From sequence record OP292222.1: a stretch of DNA of 64,000 nucleotides. One strand, 5' to 3'. The translations under genes were made by a program, and so were the position numbers. Source of the stretch: Escherichia phage Esco_phi_B-01. Each line of letters begins with the position of its first letter. Position 1 is the stretch's first letter. Below are positions 920 through 8,247 of the stretch, in pieces. Under the pieces are notes generated by a model. The model did not search any database and had not been told where the DNA came from. It worked only from the letters and a program-made list of their open reading frames with translations.

Positions 920-2329
920 ATGGCTTTTACTGTAAGTATAGCCGGCGCTGCGTCTATTAAAATAGGCGAAAGCGCCAACTACACTGCTACCGCAACAGGT
1001 GCAGCTGTAGAAGGAACCGTTACATATGTATGGACCATTGACGGTGCTTCTAATCCGGAGGCAACCAATGTTTTGAAATATACCGGTGTGGCTCCAGCTG
1101 GTAAGAAAGTTTTAAAAGTAGTAGCAACTTCTACTCCAGCCGAAGGCGAACCTGAGGTAGCTGAAAAAACTTTTGAAGTTACCGTAGCTAATAAGACCAT
1201 TGGGGCTCTTTCTTTGACCTTAGACCCTACTTCTGTTTCTAAAGAAATTGGTCAATCCCAAGTTGTTACTGCTAACGTATCGGGTGTCCCTGCTGGCGCT
1301 ACAATTACTTATGTTTGGAAACGTAATACAACTGTAATTTCAGGTCAAACTGGTAAAACTATTACCATAACCGAAGCAGCGGCAGCGAATTACACTTTGA
1401 ACTGTGAAGTTACTGTTACCGCCCCTGAATATGACCCGGCTACAGCTACTAAAGGTATTGCGGTAACTTTTGTTAAGAAAACTATATCAGGCGCTTCCGT
1501 TACTTTAACACCGGCCTCAATTAGTACAGAGAAAGGCTCATCTGCACAGTTTAAAGCGGATGTAGTTGGCGCTCCTTCCGGCGTAAATGCAACTTATTCT
1601 TGGAAGAAAAATGGTTCTATTATTCCGGGCGAAAGCAGTAATACCCTTGCTGTCGATACATCTACAGTAGGTTCTTACACTATTGAAGTTTCGGTAGTCC
1701 TAAAAGGTGCGGATTATAATGATTTAACCGTTACCAAAACCGGAAGTGTAACAATTACTAAAAAGACCATGACAGGTGTTTCTGTTACTTTAGCGCCGGC
1801 CTCTATTAATACTCCGGAAGGAACTCCAGCTTCTTTTAAAGCTACCGTAGCTGGCGCCCCTGCTGGTGCTACTTTTGCATATTCTTGGAAGAAAGATGGT
1901 TCGCCAGTCGCCGGTACCACAGATACTTTAGTAGTCGATACAAGTGCTGAAGGTTCACAGGTTATTGAAGTTTCTGTTGTGGTTTCGGCTACCGACTATA
2001 ATCCTGTGACTGTCAAAAAATCTGGTAATGTAACAATTACGCCTAAAGTCGCTCCTGAACCTGAAGGCGAACTACCTTACGTCCACCCGCTGCCGGTTCG
2101 TAATTCAGCGTATATTTGGGCCGGTTGGTGGGTTATGGATGAAATCCAGAAAATGACACTTGAAGGTAAAGATTGGAAAACTGATGACCCTGATAGCAAT
2201 TATTATCTCCATCGCTATACTCTTCAAAAAATGGTTGCCGATTATCCAGAGGTTGATGTACAAGAATCACGAAATGGAAGAATTATCCATCGTTCGGCTC
2301 TTGACACAGGTATAATTTATTTTTACTAA
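920..2329 (+). CDS. hoc: Hoc outer capsid decoration protein, four Ig-like repeats plus C-terminal capsid-binding domain
   Basis: 469 aa; four repeats of pattern TY.WK..G....G...TL.V.....G.Y..EV.V; C-terminal WAGWWVMDEIQ...YPEVDVQESRNG. Confidence 0.8.
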   Translation: MAFTVSIAGAASIKIGESANYTATATGAAVEGTVTYVWTIDGASNPEATNVLKYTGVAPAGKKVLKVVATSTPAEGEPEVAEKTFEVTVANKTIGALSLTLDPTSVSKEIGQSQVVTANVSGVPAGATITYVWKRNTTVISGQTGKTITITEAAAANYTLNCEVTVTAPEYDPATATKGIAVTFVKKTISGASVTLTPASISTEKGSSAQFKADVVGAPSGVNATYSWKKNGSIIPGESSNTLAVDTSTVGSYTIEVSVVLKGADYNDLTVTKTGSVTITKKTMTGVSVTLAPASINTPEGTPASFKATVAGAPAGATFAYSWKKDGSPVAGTTDTLVVDTSAEGSQVIEVSVVVSATDYNPVTVKKSGNVTITPKVAPEPEGELPYVHPLPVRNSAYIWAGWWVMDEIQKMTLEGKDWKTDDPDSNYYLHRYTLQKMVADYPEVDVQESRNGRIIHRSALDTGIIYFY

Positions 2330-2343
2330 TTTTGGCTAAATAA

Positions 2344-2372
2344 AAACGGGAGAGCGAAAGCTCTCCCGTTTT
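2344..2372. terminator. Bidirectional hairpin terminator between convergent hoc and hoc-like gene
   Basis: cgggagagc-gaaa-gctctcccg stem-loop flanked by A and T runs. Confidence 0.6.
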
Positions 2373-2373
2373 G

Positions 2374-3234
2374 TTATATGACATTTAATGTCAGGTGCTT
2401 CCTATTCAAAATATACCCATTTCTTGATTCCTGTATTTCTACATCAGGATATCGTGACAAAAGTTCTGCCACTTTTGCGAGCTCACACTTATACCTAAAA
2501 TTGCTATCTTCTATATTGATAGCCCAATCCTGGTTTTTATCAAGGGCACCTTTTATCTCATCCAACACCCACCAGCCTATCCACATGTGGGCCCTATTTC
2601 GGCCACCTGGATAAGACAAATACTGATTTAAATCATGTGAGTATATAAATGGACACACTTCAGGTTCAGGTAAATCACCATCCATAGGCATAATATCTAC
2701 CGTAACTATATCATGATACGGATTATAAGCACCTTCGGCTGTGGCAGAGACATTAAGAGAATATGTCCCATACATAGAAGGCTTTATATCAACATCTAAA
2801 TCCTTTACATTTGAAACCATTTTATCATATTTCCACCATTCACACTCTACTTCGGCCCAGGGTGTGGTACCCATAGAAATTAAAGGTTGTAAAGAAACTT
2901 TTTGACCTATTTCAGCCTTTATGATAGCATCTAAATTTTCTATGGAAATAACTATATCTCTAGGCTCTATCCCGATTTCCAAAACAAAATCTTCGCTTTG
3001 AAAAGTCTCTTGTGTTAGCTTATCAGTGGCTATCGCATAATAAGTCCCTGCTGCAGGAAACCCTACATCCCAAAGATTTAGATACATCGGGTCTTCTTTA
3101 TCTAATAATGGAACGTTTACACCGTTTTTGTACCATTTTATATCGACATCGGTTAAAGATTCAGATAAAACAGCCCTAAGAGTTACCGTTCTCCCAACCA
3201 ATTCATAATGAGGTCCATTTACTTGTATAGACAT
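2374..3234 (-). CDS. Hoc-family paralog: Ig-like N-terminal domains plus Hoc-type C-terminal domain
   Basis: 286 aa; C-terminal HMWIGWWVLDEIK...YPDVEIQESRNGYILNR aligns with Hoc C-terminus in this window; Ig-like motifs IKWYKNG, AGTYYAIATD. Confidence 0.75.
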   Translation of the reverse strand: MSIQVNGPHYELVGRTVTLRAVLSESLTDVDIKWYKNGVNVPLLDKEDPMYLNLWDVGFPAAGTYYAIATDKLTQETFQSEDFVLEIGIEPRDIVISIENLDAIIKAEIGQKVSLQPLISMGTTPWAEVECEWWKYDKMVSNVKDLDVDIKPSMYGTYSLNVSATAEGAYNPYHDIVTVDIMPMDGDLPEPEVCPFIYSHDLNQYLSYPGGRNRAHMWIGWWVLDEIKGALDKNQDWAINIEDSNFRYKCELAKVAELLSRYPDVEIQESRNGYILNRKHLTLNVI

Positions 3235-3245
3235 GCTACCTCCAA

Positions 3246-4253
3246 TTAATAAGGGAAACTAACCATTTTAACCAATATAGGTTTATTAGAATCTACACTG
3301 CGCCCGTGTTGAAATACCGTTATTTCTGAAATTGTTTTAGAACCCCATTCCTTTAAGGTTATATTAATAGGACGTAGCCCGTTATATGCCGCACTTACTA
3401 TAACAAATGAGCCTGTAGGAGACAAAGTCTTAGTTCCGCCACCGGTAGTAACCGTTCCACCCGAAACACTAGGAGCAACAAAGTGATAATCACAATATCG
3501 GGTAGTCCCACCTTTACTTAAAATGCTGTATTCTATTTGGTTGTTAACCAATCTAACTCTAAGAACCGTATTGGCGACCCCAGGTATTTTTATTTCGCCG
3601 TACCCAGCAGCAACGTTGGTATACTTATGGAATGAAAACAAATCTGTACCATCTTTACCAGGTTCGCCTTGAGGACCCTGAGGACCTAGAGGGCCAGTAG
3701 CTCCGTCAAGTCCATCAATCCCATCCACCCCAGGAGGACCTTGAACACCTTGCGGACCCTGCTCACCATCTTTACCCGGGATACCCTGTTCGCCTTGTGC
3801 ACCCTGAGAAGCCAATAAGGCCCAGTAAAGGCTGTTTTCTTCAGCAGGATTATTACCGGTAGAATCCTGAACGCAAAAATAAGAAGCCCCATTGTACCCT
3901 ACTGCATCATCCTTAACATAGGCTGTTGCAGCACTCCATGTTCCTTTCCAATTTAGACCCACAGGGCCTACAGGACCAGCCGGGCCTCTCGGTCCTACAA
4001 TGCTTTCACCTTTAGGGCCAGGGATACCAGGGGATAACATTTCTTCGGATATCCCCAAATGAGCCAGAACTTCAGCTCTTCCGGATTTACTAACCAAGCC
4101 TAAGCCATACGAATTACTCCCTACCAATCTTGCCGGGTTTATAAGACTTTCTTTAGTAAGAATTTTTTCAAAAGGGATAACAGTATCCGATTCCTTTAAA
4201 GCAATACCGGAAAAGGTCCCTCGACCGTCATGACCAAAAATAGAATCTGCCAT
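3246..4253 (-). CDS. Collagen-like repeat protein with embedded CBM5/12-like carbohydrate-binding motif
   Basis: 335 aa; Gly-X-Y runs (GIPGPKGESIVGPRGPAGPVGPVG and about 17 triplets GAQGEQGIPGKDGEQGPQGVQGPPGVDGIDGLDGATGPLGPQGPQGEPGKDG) flanking W..TAY..DAVGYNGASYFCVQ...W; GGAG RBS. Confidence 0.75.
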   Translation of the reverse strand: MADSIFGHDGRGTFSGIALKESDTVIPFEKILTKESLINPARLVGSNSYGLGLVSKSGRAEVLAHLGISEEMLSPGIPGPKGESIVGPRGPAGPVGPVGLNWKGTWSAATAYVKDDAVGYNGASYFCVQDSTGNNPAEENSLYWALLASQGAQGEQGIPGKDGEQGPQGVQGPPGVDGIDGLDGATGPLGPQGPQGEPGKDGTDLFSFHKYTNVAAGYGEIKIPGVANTVLRVRLVNNQIEYSILSKGGTTRYCDYHFVAPSVSGGTVTTGGGTKTLSPTGSFVIVSAAYNGLRPINITLKEWGSKTISEITVFQHGRSVDSNKPILVKMVSFPY

Positions 4254-4292
4254 TTAATACTCCTGTTTACAAGTTAAAAATCCTATGTTAAG

Positions 4293-4535
4293 ATGGCTTT
4301 ACCAAACTCAACAAGAGAATTTGTTATGGATAAGGTTAAAGTACATTTTTTACATGAATCTGGACTTAATTTTATAGAAATTGCTAAAAAATTAGGTGGT
4401 ACTGCTAAAGACATGGCTAAAGCATGGGTTGATGTGGAACAGGCCAAGGCCAAATTTAAGTCAAAAGAGAAAGTAGTATATCGCAAACGTCTAATCAATA
4501 AGGTTCGGCGCAAAGCGCGTTCTAGTTCAAAGTAA
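4293..4535 (+). CDS. Small basic protein, possible helix-turn-helix
   Basis: 80 aa, Lys/Arg-rich C-terminus; weak RBS, start uncertain (alternative ATG 4326). Confidence 0.4.
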   Translation: MALPNSTREFVMDKVKVHFLHESGLNFIEIAKKLGGTAKDMAKAWVDVEQAKAKFKSKEKVVYRKRLINKVRRKARSSSK

Positions 4536-4563
4536 TATGCTTTAAATTTAGGTGTGTTATAAT
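4536..4563 (+). promoter_or_regulatory. Candidate T4 middle promoter (MotA box TGCTTTA plus extended -10 TGTTATAAT) for rnlB
   Basis: ATGCTTTA at 4537-4544, TATAAT at 4558-4563 with TGn, 13 bp apart. Confidence 0.3.
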
Positions 4564-4649
4564 GGGTCTAGGTCCTTCCGTTAAACCATTTGGCTTGGTG
4601 ACAGAAGATTACTAGCTCTTCTATTTAATTATATTTATTATGGTGATTT

Positions 4650-5657
4650 ATGTTCAAGAAATATAGCAGTCTGGAAAACCACTACAACAGTAAGTTTATC
4701 GAAAAACTCCGTACCAATGGTTTGACTGGTGGCGAATGGGTAGCACGTGAGAAGATTCATGGAACCAACTTTAGTTTAATCATAGAACGTGACGCAGTCA
4801 CATGCGCCAAGCGCACGGGTCCAATTCTCCCTGCTGAAGATTTCTATGGTTATGAAATTGTACTTAAGAACTATGCTGATTCTATTAAATCCGTACAAGA
4901 TATTATGGAAACTTCGGCAGCCGTATCTTATCAAGTTTTCGGTGAATTCGCTGGAACAGGCATTCAGAAGAACGTTGATTACGGTGATAAAGATTTTTAT
5001 GTATTTGACATTATTGTTACAACCGAAAGTGGCGATGTGACTTATGTCGACGATTATATGATGGAATCATTTTGTAAGACGTTCAAATTTAAAACGGCGC
5101 CACTTTTAGGTCGTGGTAAATTTGAAGACCTTATTAAATTGCCAAATGATTTGGATTCCGTCCTTCCTGATTATAATTTTACAGTAGATAATGTCGGGCT
5201 AGCCGAAGCTAATGCTCATGTGTGGAATGCTGAAGCAAAAGGCGAAGTATTTACCGCTGAAGGGTACGTATTAAAACCTTGTTATCCACTTTGGCTCCCT
5301 AATGGAAATCGTGTAGCGATTAAATGTAAGAACTCTAAATTCAGCGAGAAGAAAAAGTCTGATAAGCCTATTAAAGTTGCAGTAGTATTATCTCAAGACG
5401 ATTTAGATTTATTACAACAATTCACTGATTATGTGACTGTTAACCGTATTAACAACGTTATCAGTAAGATTGGTGAAGTATCACCTAAAGATTTCGGAAA
5501 GGTAATGGGACTGACGGTCCAAGATATTTTGGAAGAGGCAGCCCGTGAAGAATTAGAATTAACCGATGCAGAAAACCCTGTTGAAGTTAAAAAGCAGCTC
5601 GTTGAGTGTGTAAAAGATACGCTACGGGCCGTGTGGATTGAATTAGTATCCAAATAA
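4650..5657 (+). CDS. rnlB: RNA ligase 2 (Rnl2)
   Basis: 335 aa; near-colinear with recalled T4 Rnl2 ([20 protein letters not shown]..., KIHGTN adenylyltransferase motif I). Confidence 0.9.
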
Positions 5658-5662
5658 ACAGT

Positions 5663-5692
5663 AAAGGGACCTTACGGTCCCTTTTATTTTTC
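5663..5692. terminator. Bidirectional hairpin terminator between rnlB and gp24 paralog
   Basis: gggacc-ttac-ggtccc then T-run. Confidence 0.6.
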
Positions 5693-6964
5693 TAGTGGTG
5701 GAAGTTTAACACCAAGATAAGAACTCAACTGGCTTTGGTTAGCCATTTTGTCCATATCAGAGCCATCAATAATGCGGGCTTCTTTATCGTCCTTAGCGAC
5801 GGTATAAGGGTTTGCAGTCAATGCATAACGAGCAAGCAATGCTACTGTAGGTTGTAAGCTTTCCGGGTCAACAATAACCTTAAATTCACCTACTGAAGTA
5901 TCACCTTCTTCATCAACCACATCCAAACCTTCCGTATAAGGCGCATAATATAAAGATGCGACCGTCTGTCCTTCACCCATCTGGGCATTTACACCAACAA
6001 TAACATAATCACATGGACTATTCATATCAGCATAAAGAGGCAGACCATTCTTTAATACACCATAGGCCAATTCGTCTTGGTCTTCCTTTTTCTCAACCCA
6101 ACCGGAAGCGGCGAGAATAGCAGCACAACGAGAACTAGCTACTGCATAAGTCCCAGCGAAAGAAGTTTGACGTTGGACGGCAGAGTTCATCTCACACATG
6201 TAATAATATAATGTACGAGCACGGTCCTGGGCGTTATCGTAACGTGGGTTGGTAAGGTCTAATACACCTTTTTCAGAAACACCTTGGACTTTAAAACGAG
6301 AACTCACCGTAATTAATGACTGTAATACATCCTTATTAATTTCTTCTGCCATTTGGATGCCTAGCAGATTTTCAACGAAATTAGGAGCATTAAACCCGTT
6401 TGATTCTAGGTCCTGGGCTAATTCGACTGTCAATGAAGTTTTCAGTTTACGTGATTTAACTTCAGATTGCCATTTATCAATACGGAAGCCTGCTTCAGCA
6501 ATTTCAGGATGGCCTTGTTCGAATTTAGAAGTAATAGCAGCATCCGATACCATACGAATATGTCCGGCTGCCACTGCTTCAGAAATAACTTCACCGAGGT
6601 CGGTTTCTGTGGTTCCAGCGAAAGGAGATGCTTCTAGAACTTTAAACACCACACTTTCAAACTGGAACATATCGCCGGCTGCATAAGCTGTAGACGAATC
6701 GGCAAATTCAGGAATATTTTCACGTTCCGACATACCAATCTGGCCCGCAAATGTAGCACCACCAAGATAAGTCATTTTGTCGTCAGGGTTAAGTACACGA
6801 ACCCCGTACAGAGCAGCAACAGGTTGGCTTGTTTTTTGTTCAGCAACTAGGGCTTTAAAGATTCGTTTATTAGTTGCTTGGGTGTATGAAAGAAGAGCAG
6901 GACGGCCAACCGAGTTGGCAGCCGTCAATGTGGATTCTTTAATTAGGTCTATAATCTTAGACAT
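5684..6964 (-). CDS. Second gp24-family head vertex protein (diverged paralog)
   Basis: 426 aa; gp24/gp23 fold motifs shared with adjacent gp24 (RIDKWQSEVKSRKLKT, ELAQDLESNGF, EINKDVLQSLITVS) but strongly diverged. Confidence 0.85.
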   Translation of the reverse strand: MSKIIDLIKESTLTAANSVGRPALLSYTQATNKRIFKALVAEQKTSQPVAALYGVRVLNPDDKMTYLGGATFAGQIGMSERENIPEFADSSTAYAAGDMFQFESVVFKVLEASPFAGTTETDLGEVISEAVAAGHIRMVSDAAITSKFEQGHPEIAEAGFRIDKWQSEVKSRKLKTSLTVELAQDLESNGFNAPNFVENLLGIQMAEEINKDVLQSLITVSSRFKVQGVSEKGVLDLTNPRYDNAQDRARTLYYYMCEMNSAVQRQTSFAGTYAVASSRCAAILAASGWVEKKEDQDELAYGVLKNGLPLYADMNSPCDYVIVGVNAQMGEGQTVASLYYAPYTEGLDVVDEEGDTSVGEFKVIVDPESLQPTVALLARYALTANPYTVAKDDKEARIIDGSDMDKMANQSQLSSYLGVKLPPLEK

Positions 6965-8247
6965 TAATCAGCCTCGTAAATAATTGCTGGAAGTTTAACA
7001 CCAAGCAGATAAGACATATTACTCTGTCCGGCCATTAAATCCATATTGGTGGCATCGATAACACGAGCTTCTTTATCGTCTTTAGCTACGGTGTACGGGT
7101 TAGCGGACAGTGCATAACGAACCATCAGAGAAATAGAAGGCTGTAATGAATCCGGGTCGACAATAACCTTATAAGCACCAACGTGTTCTGGGTCGTCTAA
7201 ATCCAGGCCTTCTGTATACGGGGCATAGAAAATAGAACCGACAACTTCATTACCGCCATAGTTCTCTTTAACACCTACGATAACATAATCCAATGGGCTG
7301 TTAACGTCACAGAACAATGGTAATCCATTCAACAAATAACCATAGGCAGTTTCTGGGAGCCAATTATTATCTTCAGGTCTATGTTTTAACCAGCCAGAAC
7401 CTGCAAGCATTGCAGCCACACGACTTGAAGCCACAACAAACGTACCGGAATAAGAAGTAGTTTTCTGGATTTCAGAATTCATCTCACAAACAATTTCATA
7501 AAGTTTACGTGCAGATTCTGGAGCACTATCATAAGTCAAATCGATGATGCCATTATCAGATACACCCGTAACTTTATAGCGTTTAGATACGGTTATCAGA
7601 GATTGCAGAACGTCTTTATTAATTTCATCTGCCATTACTGTAGCCAGGAGGTCTTCTAAGAATGCAGGGGCGTCGAAGCCATTTGATTCCATATCCTGGG
7701 CCAATTCTACAGTCAAAGCAGTCTTCAATTTACGGGTCTTAACAGGAGCATTCCATTTATTAACCTGGAATACAGCATCAGAGATTTCTACATTACTCGC
7801 TTCGAATTTAGTGGTATGGGCTGCATCAGGAACCAGACGACATGTTAATGACACCAAACCTTCTTGAAGGGCATCAGCCAATCCTGTAGCGCTAGTGGAT
7901 GCGAGTGGGCTTGCTTGAAGAGCCTTATAAACCACATTCTGATACTTAAAGTAGTCACCCTTGGCAATCGCCTGGGCTTTATCTGTGAGTTCTGGGATAG
8001 TTTCACGGTCTTTAGAACCAACTTCACCACCATAAACAGCACCAGTTTGGAAACTGAATTCATTATCAGGGGTAAGATATTTGACACCGTACAATGCAGC
8101 AATAGGCTGACTAGTACGTTGTTCAGCGATGATATCGCGATAAATTAGTTTAGTGGTAGCACGGGTCAAAGCAACAAGATTAGGGCGACCCAATGAGTTG
8201 CTGGTAGTAGTTGTTGACTCGCGCAGTAATTCGTTAATCTTTGCCAT
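6964..8247 (-). CDS. 24: Head vertex protein gp24
   Basis: 427 aa; MAKINELLRESTTT... matches recalled T4 gp24; stop overlaps start of paralog at 6964. Confidence 0.9.
   Translation of the reverse strand: MAKINELLRESTTTTSNSLGRPNLVALTRATTKLIYRDIIAEQRTSQPIAALYGVKYLTPDNEFSFQTGAVYGGEVGSKDRETIPELTDKAQAIAKGDYFKYQNVVYKALQASPLASTSATGLADALQEGLVSLTCRLVPDAAHTTKFEASNVEISDAVFQVNKWNAPVKTRKLKTALTVELAQDMESNGFDAPAFLEDLLATVMADEINKDVLQSLITVSKRYKVTGVSDNGIIDLTYDSAPESARKLYEIVCEMNSEIQKTTSYSGTFVVASSRVAAMLAGSGWLKHRPEDNNWLPETAYGYLLNGLPLFCDVNSPLDYVIVGVKENYGGNEVVGSIFYAPYTEGLDLDDPEHVGAYKVIVDPDSLQPSISLMVRYALSANPYTVAKDDKEARVIDATNMDLMAGQSNMSYLLGVKLPAIIYEAD

Follow-up and report, generated by a model that had tools for sequence, protein, structure and literature searches.

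The 64,000-nt stretch of Escherichia phage Esco_phi_B-01 analyzed here (OP292222.1; the window) carries on its minus strand, at positions 3246..4253, a 335-residue open reading frame (ORF) that encodes a collagen-stalked fiber and lies immediately upstream of a gene for a short paralogue of the capsid decoration protein Hoc (Hoc-2). The explanation we favor, tentatively and at somewhat under even confidence, is that the product is an accessory, non-essential trimeric adhesin fiber carried on the capsid, alongside Hoc-2 or by way of it. The ORF, first marked in a first-pass annotation of this DNA, is real: it starts with ATG, has an AGGAG Shine-Dalgarno sequence 6 nt further 5′ (4260-4264, minus strand) and ends in a stop codon at 3246-3248. 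The protein has five parts, namely a 75-residue N-terminal domain, a stretch of 3+5 Gly-X-Y triplets, a module with the fold of carbohydrate-binding module families 5 and 12 (CBM5/12), a further 18 Gly-X-Y triplets and a 131-residue C-terminal β-sandwich. The first-pass annotation overlooked the T4-like-specific N-terminal domain, its pairing with the Hoc-2 gene and the C-terminal β-sandwich.

The window belongs to a member of the JS10/JS98 group of T4-like coliphages, genus Dhakavirus, and over the 3 kb around the fiber gene it shares 95% identity with JS10. The gene itself was in the databases already, annotated in JS10, where EpJS10_0176 (a 'tail fiber-like protein', in RefSeq a 'tail fiber protein') occupies the same locus and shares 99.7% identity with the window protein. 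Nor is its overall layout unusual: of the 1632 homologues of the fiber most contain both Pfam domains (collagen and CBM5/12), a combination often met in phages. The gene is flanked in the window by Hoc-like genes on one side (920-2329, plus strand; 2374-3234, minus strand) and by 24.3, rnlB, gp24 and gp23 on the other. That T4 has only small genes at this position proved correct, since 24.2 and 24.3 are all that lies between rnlB and hoc in T4.

The pairing with Hoc-2 is the strongest clue to the position of the fiber on the virion. Hoc-2 (286 residues; 2374..3234, minus strand), identified by PHROG and by alignment to the longer Hoc-1 of the window, consists of two immunoglobulin-like (Ig-like) domains and, after these, the Hoc capsid-binding C-terminal domain and matches the PHROG 1149 Hoc-like profile at E 3.7e-46. 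Its start lies 11 nt after the fiber stop, and it has its own GGAGG at 3239-3243. Hoc-2 also follows the fiber in dhabil, VR25, Cronus (a short Hoc-2), Aeromonas phage 65 (annotated hoc-2), CGG4-1, ABTNLsp5, Phynn, Kosakonia 305 and TH15. A tblastn search with the type-A Hoc-2 distal Ig domain matched 24 phage records, and a fiber with a type-A N-terminal domain was present in the locus in all 24. In 19 of these, which were also matched by the N-terminal domain search, fiber and Hoc-2 are on the same strand with their starts 1.0-1.6 kb apart, the fiber upstream; this spacing is about one fiber-gene length, and those annotated loci that were inspected showed the two genes directly adjacent. The other five records are those of ABTNLsp5, Phynn and TH15, in which the fiber lies immediately upstream of Hoc-2 and has a more divergent N-terminal domain, and two of IME08, in which the fiber lies ~2.7 kb from Hoc-2, after gp24b and across rnlB, and the N-terminal domain is a frame-shifted ORF. 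The IME08 'tail fiber-like protein' (3752-4939 of locus L010) is annotated without the N-terminal domain, and a separate 68-residue ORF for that domain lies directly upstream in another frame (3543-3749); the split reflects a pseudogene or else a frameshift or sequencing error. Among metagenome contigs, Hoc-2 was adjacent to the fiber in six of the six checked, and in one of them the order is swapped, with Hoc-2 upstream of the fiber and the adjacency kept.

The two genes also come and go together. Within Dhakavirus the fiber/Hoc-2 pair is present or absent as a unit, QL01 and UP19 having neither gene. PspYZU05 retains a 50-residue fiber remnant beside a truncated Hoc. Head-module location combined with dispensability, as seen from its absence in the congeneric QL01 and UP19, is the pattern of a capsid decoration or head fiber. 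Duplication of gp24 was considered as a correlate of the cassette and rejected, since QL01 and UP19 keep two gp24 genes without the fiber and Hoc-2. A strict, order-independent linkage of fiber and Hoc-2 appears to be undescribed in the literature searched.

The two ends of the fiber have different distributions. The N-terminal domain (residues 1-75, 4029..4253, minus strand; FGHDGRGxFxG...IPFxxILT...ALxxLGIxxEML), delimited by tblastn and alignment and presumed to be the virion anchor, was found by tblastn in 22 phage records, all 22 of them Straboviridae, from five host genera (Escherichia, Salmonella, Erwinia, Aeromonas and Pseudomonas). No relatives of it were found in Pfam or the PDB, and a scan of IMG/VR with the N-terminal domain pattern recovered three genomes, all already in the set. 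The C-terminal β-sandwich (residues 205-335, 3249..3641, minus strand; AF2, tblastn and HMMER), presumed to be an exchangeable ligand-binding tip, is rare: an exhaustive HMMER search of 1.84 billion representative proteins gave 15 matches, each with the domain at the C terminus of the protein; an earlier homologue search with this domain alone gave no match, probably owing to a word-index limit. By tblastn it occurs in 20 phage records, 18 from coliphages and two from Kosakonia phages, and its carriers span four morphotypes, namely T4-like Straboviridae (JS10, VR25/26, Kosakonia 305), Vequintavirinae-like phages (A7_1, A5-4), Drexlerviridae (AugustePiccard, RobRod40, e4/1c and others) and the Autographiviridae podophage PAS7. 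The N-terminal domain thus tracks phage lineage and the C-terminal domain tracks host. A proximal domain that follows lineage and a distal domain that follows host are the usual signature of an anchor and an exchangeable binding tip, and this split between the end domains likewise appears to be undescribed in the literature searched.

In the full-length AF2 model the C-terminal domain is predicted to have 10 strands with a predicted local distance difference test score (pLDDT) of 85-94, and no match to its fold was found in the PDB. A C1q/TNF-like head following the collagen stalk was tried as an identity for this domain and dropped, as the ten-stranded jelly-roll with structural similarity to C1q/TNF domains that it calls for was not found. 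In BFVD, the stand-alone 124-residue protein A0A067YYN2 of phage vB_EcoS_AHP42 is a fold match (TM 0.78, 17% identity), and the modeled similarity suggests that the head domain may also occur as a free protein.

Between the two end domains lies the stalk. Collagen segment 1 (residues 76-101, 3951..4028, minus strand; ~7 nm of triple helix) is made of three triplets (residues 76-84), an Ile-Val break (85-86) and five triplets (87-101), and segment 2 (residues 151-204, 3642..3803, minus strand; ~15 nm) of 18 uninterrupted Gly-X-Y triplets. The first-pass annotation was right in reporting two Gly-X-Y runs and wrong in their details, since the first is broken rather than uninterrupted and the second has 18 triplets, not 17. 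The Pfam Collagen profile (PF01391), proposed there as a check, matches at E 1.2e-10 and 41.4 bits against a cut-off of 27.2; the segments also match solved collagens, and their pLDDT in the AF2 monomer model is below 50, as expected. The two segments point to a homotrimer. The standard rise of a collagen triple helix is ~0.29 nm per residue, and addition of the knob and tip to the ~7 nm and ~15 nm of helix calculated at this rise gives an estimated fiber length of ~25-30 nm. Stalk composition varies between orthologues: Pantoea phage Phynn joins the N-terminal domain straight to the head domain without collagen or CBM, the ABTNLsp5 fiber has three CBM modules, and among the top 120 homologues one to three CBM modules per protein alternate with collagen. 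The stalk parts thus behave as dispensable spacers.

The module between the collagen segments (residues 102-148, 3810..3950, minus strand; Pfam, profile and AF2/Foldseek) deserves closer attention, since the first-pass annotation proposed a trimeric collagen stalk that displays it as a glycan-binding module. The motif on which that proposal was built, W..TAY..DAVGYNGASYFCVQ...W, is present at residues 106-144, and the fold assignment is borne out. Pfam CBM_5_12 (PF02839) scores 23.2 bits on the whole protein and 27.6 bits on the 53-residue module alone, against a cut-off of 26.2, and 50 of 53 homologous modules match it. A profile built from these modules matches, over its full length, the chitin-binding domain of Bacillus circulans ChiA1, whose structure is solved (1ed7, E 4.6e-7), and also picks up CBM5/12 domains of several chitinases and deacetylases, and the AF2 model of the module (pLDDT ~90) is matched by Foldseek to a chitinase C binding domain with probability 1.0. 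The module has the three-stranded β fold with two core aromatics that defines CBM5/12, and Tyr112 and Trp144, the counterparts of the hydrophobic-core aromatics in a published comparison (PMC8449059), are invariant in the 53 modules. With the ChiA1 domain, Streptomyces griseus ChiC and CjCBM5 the phage module has in common the fold, the core Tyr and Trp and the V-Y-N-G-x-x-Y motif.

What sets the phage module apart from these chitin-binding domains is the lack of exposed binding aromatics. Characterized CBM5/12 domains bind chitin through exposed aromatics, a Y-W or W-W pair and a third Tyr, which are distinct from the Tyr and Trp of the core (PMC8449059). At the positions equivalent to the exposed pair the window module has Gln129-Asp130, a placement that rests partly on spacing from the core Tyr in PMC8449059; the 'gWe' loop that holds Trp687 in ChiA1 is an insertion absent from the phage-module profile, and across the 53 modules aromatic frequency over residues 127-142 is 0-3%. 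Because the exposed aromatics are missing both here and across the phage module family, it is doubtful from sequence comparison that the module binds chitin in the canonical way. A working site in this module for chitin or another glycan rich in N-acetylglucosamine, presented by the collagen stalk, has in its favor the CBM5/12 fold, the profile matches to that family, the frequency of the module in phage fibers, often in two or three copies that would increase avidity, and Tyr143, which coincides with the third of the CBM5 binding aromatics, a less conserved one (PMC8449059). We nevertheless consider it quite improbable, since the invariant aromatics are core residues, the module is internal with a triple helix on either side, the Phynn orthologue retains the N-terminal domain, head domain and Hoc-2 with no module at all, and E. 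coli surfaces have no chitin. Embedding between triple helices implies three copies of the module around the fiber axis, a further difference from the chitinase domains, and the module may serve as a trimeric knob keeping the two helices in register or may bind another ligand through Trp102, Trp106 and Tyr143. The 131-residue C-terminal domain, and not the internal CBM bead, is likely to be the ligand-binding part. The idea of a virion-surface adhesin thus keeps its trimeric-fiber anatomy, its head-gene locus and its CBM5/12 fold, and loses both the novelty of the gene and, probably, the role of the CBM as the binding part; as to a 'glycan-binding module', the fold stands and the binding is unproven.

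Taken together, these features lead us to propose the following arrangement for the capsid-displayed fiber. The 75-residue N-terminal domain, restricted to T4-like phages, would anchor the trimer to the particle, and a stalk of ~7 nm and ~15 nm of triple helix, interrupted by a knob of three CBM5/12-fold modules, would carry at its distal tip the rare β-sandwich as a swappable ligand-binding head common to coliphages. The fiber would be produced together with its dedicated Hoc-2 and would sit on the capsid, docked on Hoc-2 at its conserved distal Ig domain or else beside Hoc-2, whose C-terminal domain would plug into the centers of gp23 hexamers as Hoc does. Such a fiber would equip the head with an adhesin of long reach that binds host-surface or mucosal glycans reversibly and raises the rate of host encounter. 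Domain anatomy, CBM fold, the distribution of each domain and the cassette linkage are shown here; trimerization, presence in the virion, capsid location (from genomics only), docking on Hoc-2 and the ligand are what we infer from them.

Several observations weigh against this proposal. Docking of a trimer on monomeric Hoc-2 poses a problem of symmetry and stoichiometry, the N-terminal domain is modeled by AF2 at low pLDDT (33-79), and a literature search found no virion proteomics, electron microscopy or binding data for any family member. Co-transfer of two independent accessory genes could also yield the linkage. A short type-B N-terminus, found in VR25 and Kosakonia 305 and related to the type-A motif, occurs in addition on the fibers of phage A7_1 (Vequintavirinae-like) and contig L019, where the fiber gene follows a tail-fiber gene, precedes a head-tail adaptor gene and has neighbors that are not Hoc-like; specificity for Hoc is therefore no intrinsic property of the N-terminal motif, which can work without Hoc-2. 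(The neighbor of the A7_1 fiber, phrog_4998, was considered as a cryptic Hoc-like adaptor on a weak BLAST match, E 0.026, which a hidden Markov model search did not confirm.) Public annotation and the PHROG label, finally, both say 'tail fiber'.

The last two points lead directly to a different placement, in which the protein is an accessory tail or neck fiber, such as a side fiber or a whisker-like appendage, whose N-terminal domain attaches to a conserved T4-type tail, collar or baseplate part and whose adjacency to Hoc-2 merely records co-transfer in a recombination hot spot. The fiber matches the PHROG 5073 'tail fiber protein' profile at E 1.5e-69, in agreement with the JS10 and RefSeq annotation; the C-terminal domain, together with the related type-B N-terminus, stands at the end of the A7_1 tail-fiber locus and is also found on a 'putative tail fiber' beside the tailspike of PAS7; and a layout of collagen, CBM insertion, collagen linker and C-terminal domain is documented on tail proteins of Streptococcus thermophilus phages (PMC7533335). 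The PHROG match, however, covers only profile positions 139-312, in contrast to a Drexlerviridae collagen protein that matches the profile end to end and has a different (DUF1737) N-terminus, and the 'tail' label has been carried over by collagen/CBM similarity alone, with no experiment behind it. The N-terminal domain is unlike any known tail-attachment domain, and all T4-like genomes examined have the gene in the head-decoration locus (gp24/rnlB/hoc/inh), never in tail-fiber or baseplate clusters. Moreover, the adjacency to Hoc-2 outlasts a swap of gene order, and the pair is present, absent or decayed together. We regard a tail or neck location as a serious rival, though less likely than the capsid.

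It is also conceivable that the gene product is not part of the virion at all, as an expressed non-structural 'moron' or a decaying gene. No late-promoter box was found within 150 nt upstream of the fiber gene in the window, a result that likewise counts against the capsid fiber; the gene is dispensable within the genus, as QL01 and UP19 demonstrate, and remnants of it exist in PspYZU05, AP1 and IME08. Against this, the ORF is intact, has a strong ribosome-binding site and is 99.7% conserved with JS10, the three globular domains are all conserved across genera, and a fiber architecture makes little sense away from the particle. Many orthologues, furthermore, have late-promoter boxes: the exact T4 box TATAAATA lies 42-75 nt 5′ of the fiber gene in four orthologous cassettes, and a box with one mismatch lies 5′ of it in six more. 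A non-virion protein is accordingly very improbable in our judgment. A σ70-like promoter match, TTGAAC-18-TATAAT (minus strand, 4657-4628), is directed through 24.3 at the fiber gene. No experimental work on the gene was found in the literature searched.

Returning to the capsid fiber, a bolder form of the proposal, which we put forward as a hypothesis with the odds against it, is a two-component swappable capsid adhesin in at least seven T4-like genera, in which the Hoc-2 distal Ig domain is the socket for the fiber N-terminal domain and the tip is exchanged among coliphages. In favor of the capsid fiber in general, the distal Ig domain of Hoc-2 is about as conserved as the capsid-binding domain (44% and 41% identity, respectively, to Cronus). 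Distances among N-terminal domains correlate with those among Hoc-2 distal Ig domains (Mantel r 0.48, p 0.012) and not with RnlB distances (r 0.14); this mirror-tree support is moderate, is confounded by gene linkage and is suggestive only. Between the window, dhabil and contig L022, RnlB identity is 96-99%, whereas that of the fiber N-terminal domain and Hoc-2 is only 27-60%, and the cassette is therefore a hypervariable, exchangeable island. The edge of the cassette in these three sequences is a sharp boundary of recombination or diversification.

Comparison with described systems helps to place the fiber, and each element of the proposed capsid fiber has a precedent. In SPP1, gp12 is a collagen-like trimer on hexamer centers, proposed to lie at the capsid surface, non-essential and suspected of a role in adhesion (PMC5292684, PMC7602432). 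The window fiber resembles it as a dispensable collagen-like protein with a presumed adhesive function; gp12 differs in being tiny and in binding hexamer centers directly via a helical C-terminal part, whereas in the window the putative anchor lies at the N terminus and there are also a CBM-fold knob, a β-sandwich tip and a co-encoded Hoc paralogue. The phi29 head fiber gp8.5 is also trimeric and non-essential, and aids ordered attachment to host walls (PMC7602432); its stalk is a helical coiled coil rather than collagen, and there is no evident relation in sequence or fold. Second, short Hocs (Muldoon, PG7) and a Hoc capsid-binding domain fused to a GDSL lipase/esterase have been described as means of functionalizing the capsid, the Hoc anchor serving to display other ligands (PMC10385173, Fokine et al. 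2023). Hoc-2 of the window is like T4 Hoc and these short Hocs in its conserved capsid-binding C-terminal domain and Ig-like domains, whereas the fiber itself contains no Hoc domain; the word 'collagen' does not occur in PMC10385173, which thus mentions no collagen-like partner gene. Streptococcal and lactococcal siphophages also combine collagen with CBMs, there as extensions of the tail-associated lysin (Tal) at the tail tip with BppA-like CBMs, whereas the fiber here is free-standing, bears a CBM5/12-fold module and has its gene in the head locus of a myovirus of the T4 type.

A partly parallel arrangement is found in Drexlerviridae: in both genomes inspected, the gene directly upstream of that for the major capsid protein encodes the homologous collagen protein. 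In AugustePiccard (locus L005) the collagen protein, with its DUF1737 N-terminus, follows a PHROG 9703 'head decoration' protein (genes 3098-4387 and 4470-5903). This neighbor, annotated as a 'putative head outer capsid protein', has a GDSL/SGNH esterase domain (Pfam E 4.2e-13). It was considered as a Hoc-2 homologue and rejected, there being no similarity between this PHROG 9703 SGNH/GDSL esterase and Hoc-2. Judged by sequence, the pair may be a capsid-displayed esterase and fiber in a siphophage.

The remaining features of the locus are as follows. Hoc-1 (469 residues; 920-2329, plus strand) has four Ig-like repeats and the capsid-binding domain. Because Hoc-1 and Hoc-2 share the capsid-binding C-terminus, they should compete for the same hexamer sites. 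The Hoc-1 and Hoc-2 genes converge on a hairpin at 2348..2367 that resembles a bidirectional intrinsic terminator and ends both units, the one with fiber and Hoc-2 and the converging one with inh and Hoc-1. On the other side of the fiber gene, a divergent gene for a gp24.3-like DUF2774 protein (4293-4535, plus strand) has its start codon 39 bp from that of the fiber. JS10 has an additional 369-bp hypothetical ORF, EpJS10_0174, between 24.3 and rnlB (5650-6018 of locus L001), which is missing from the corresponding interval of the window (4536-4649), and the alignment of the window to JS10 falls into two pieces because of this indel. Further along lie tandem duplicated genes for the gp24 vertex protein (24b/24a, as in JS10; 5684-6964 and 6964-8247, minus strand).

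The JS10/JS98 group has been developed for therapy of diarrhea. Decorations of the Hoc type are under study as mediators of mucus adherence and as display platforms (PMC10385173, PMC11853027). The fiber gene itself is ordinary, and the fiber/Hoc-2 cassette is moderately interesting. Should the fiber be located on the tail or neck instead of the capsid, it would be one more accessory fiber of modest importance. Should the two-component adhesin be correct, it would give the T4 group its first described head fiber, and no Ig-like decoration protein would previously have been known to serve as adaptor for another structural protein. A head fiber of ~25-30 nm with an exchangeable tip would add to surface recognition a second layer, modular in nature and neglected in current host-range models; the hypervariability of this locus between otherwise near-identical genomes could be a consequence, and capsid display would gain a natural scaffold.

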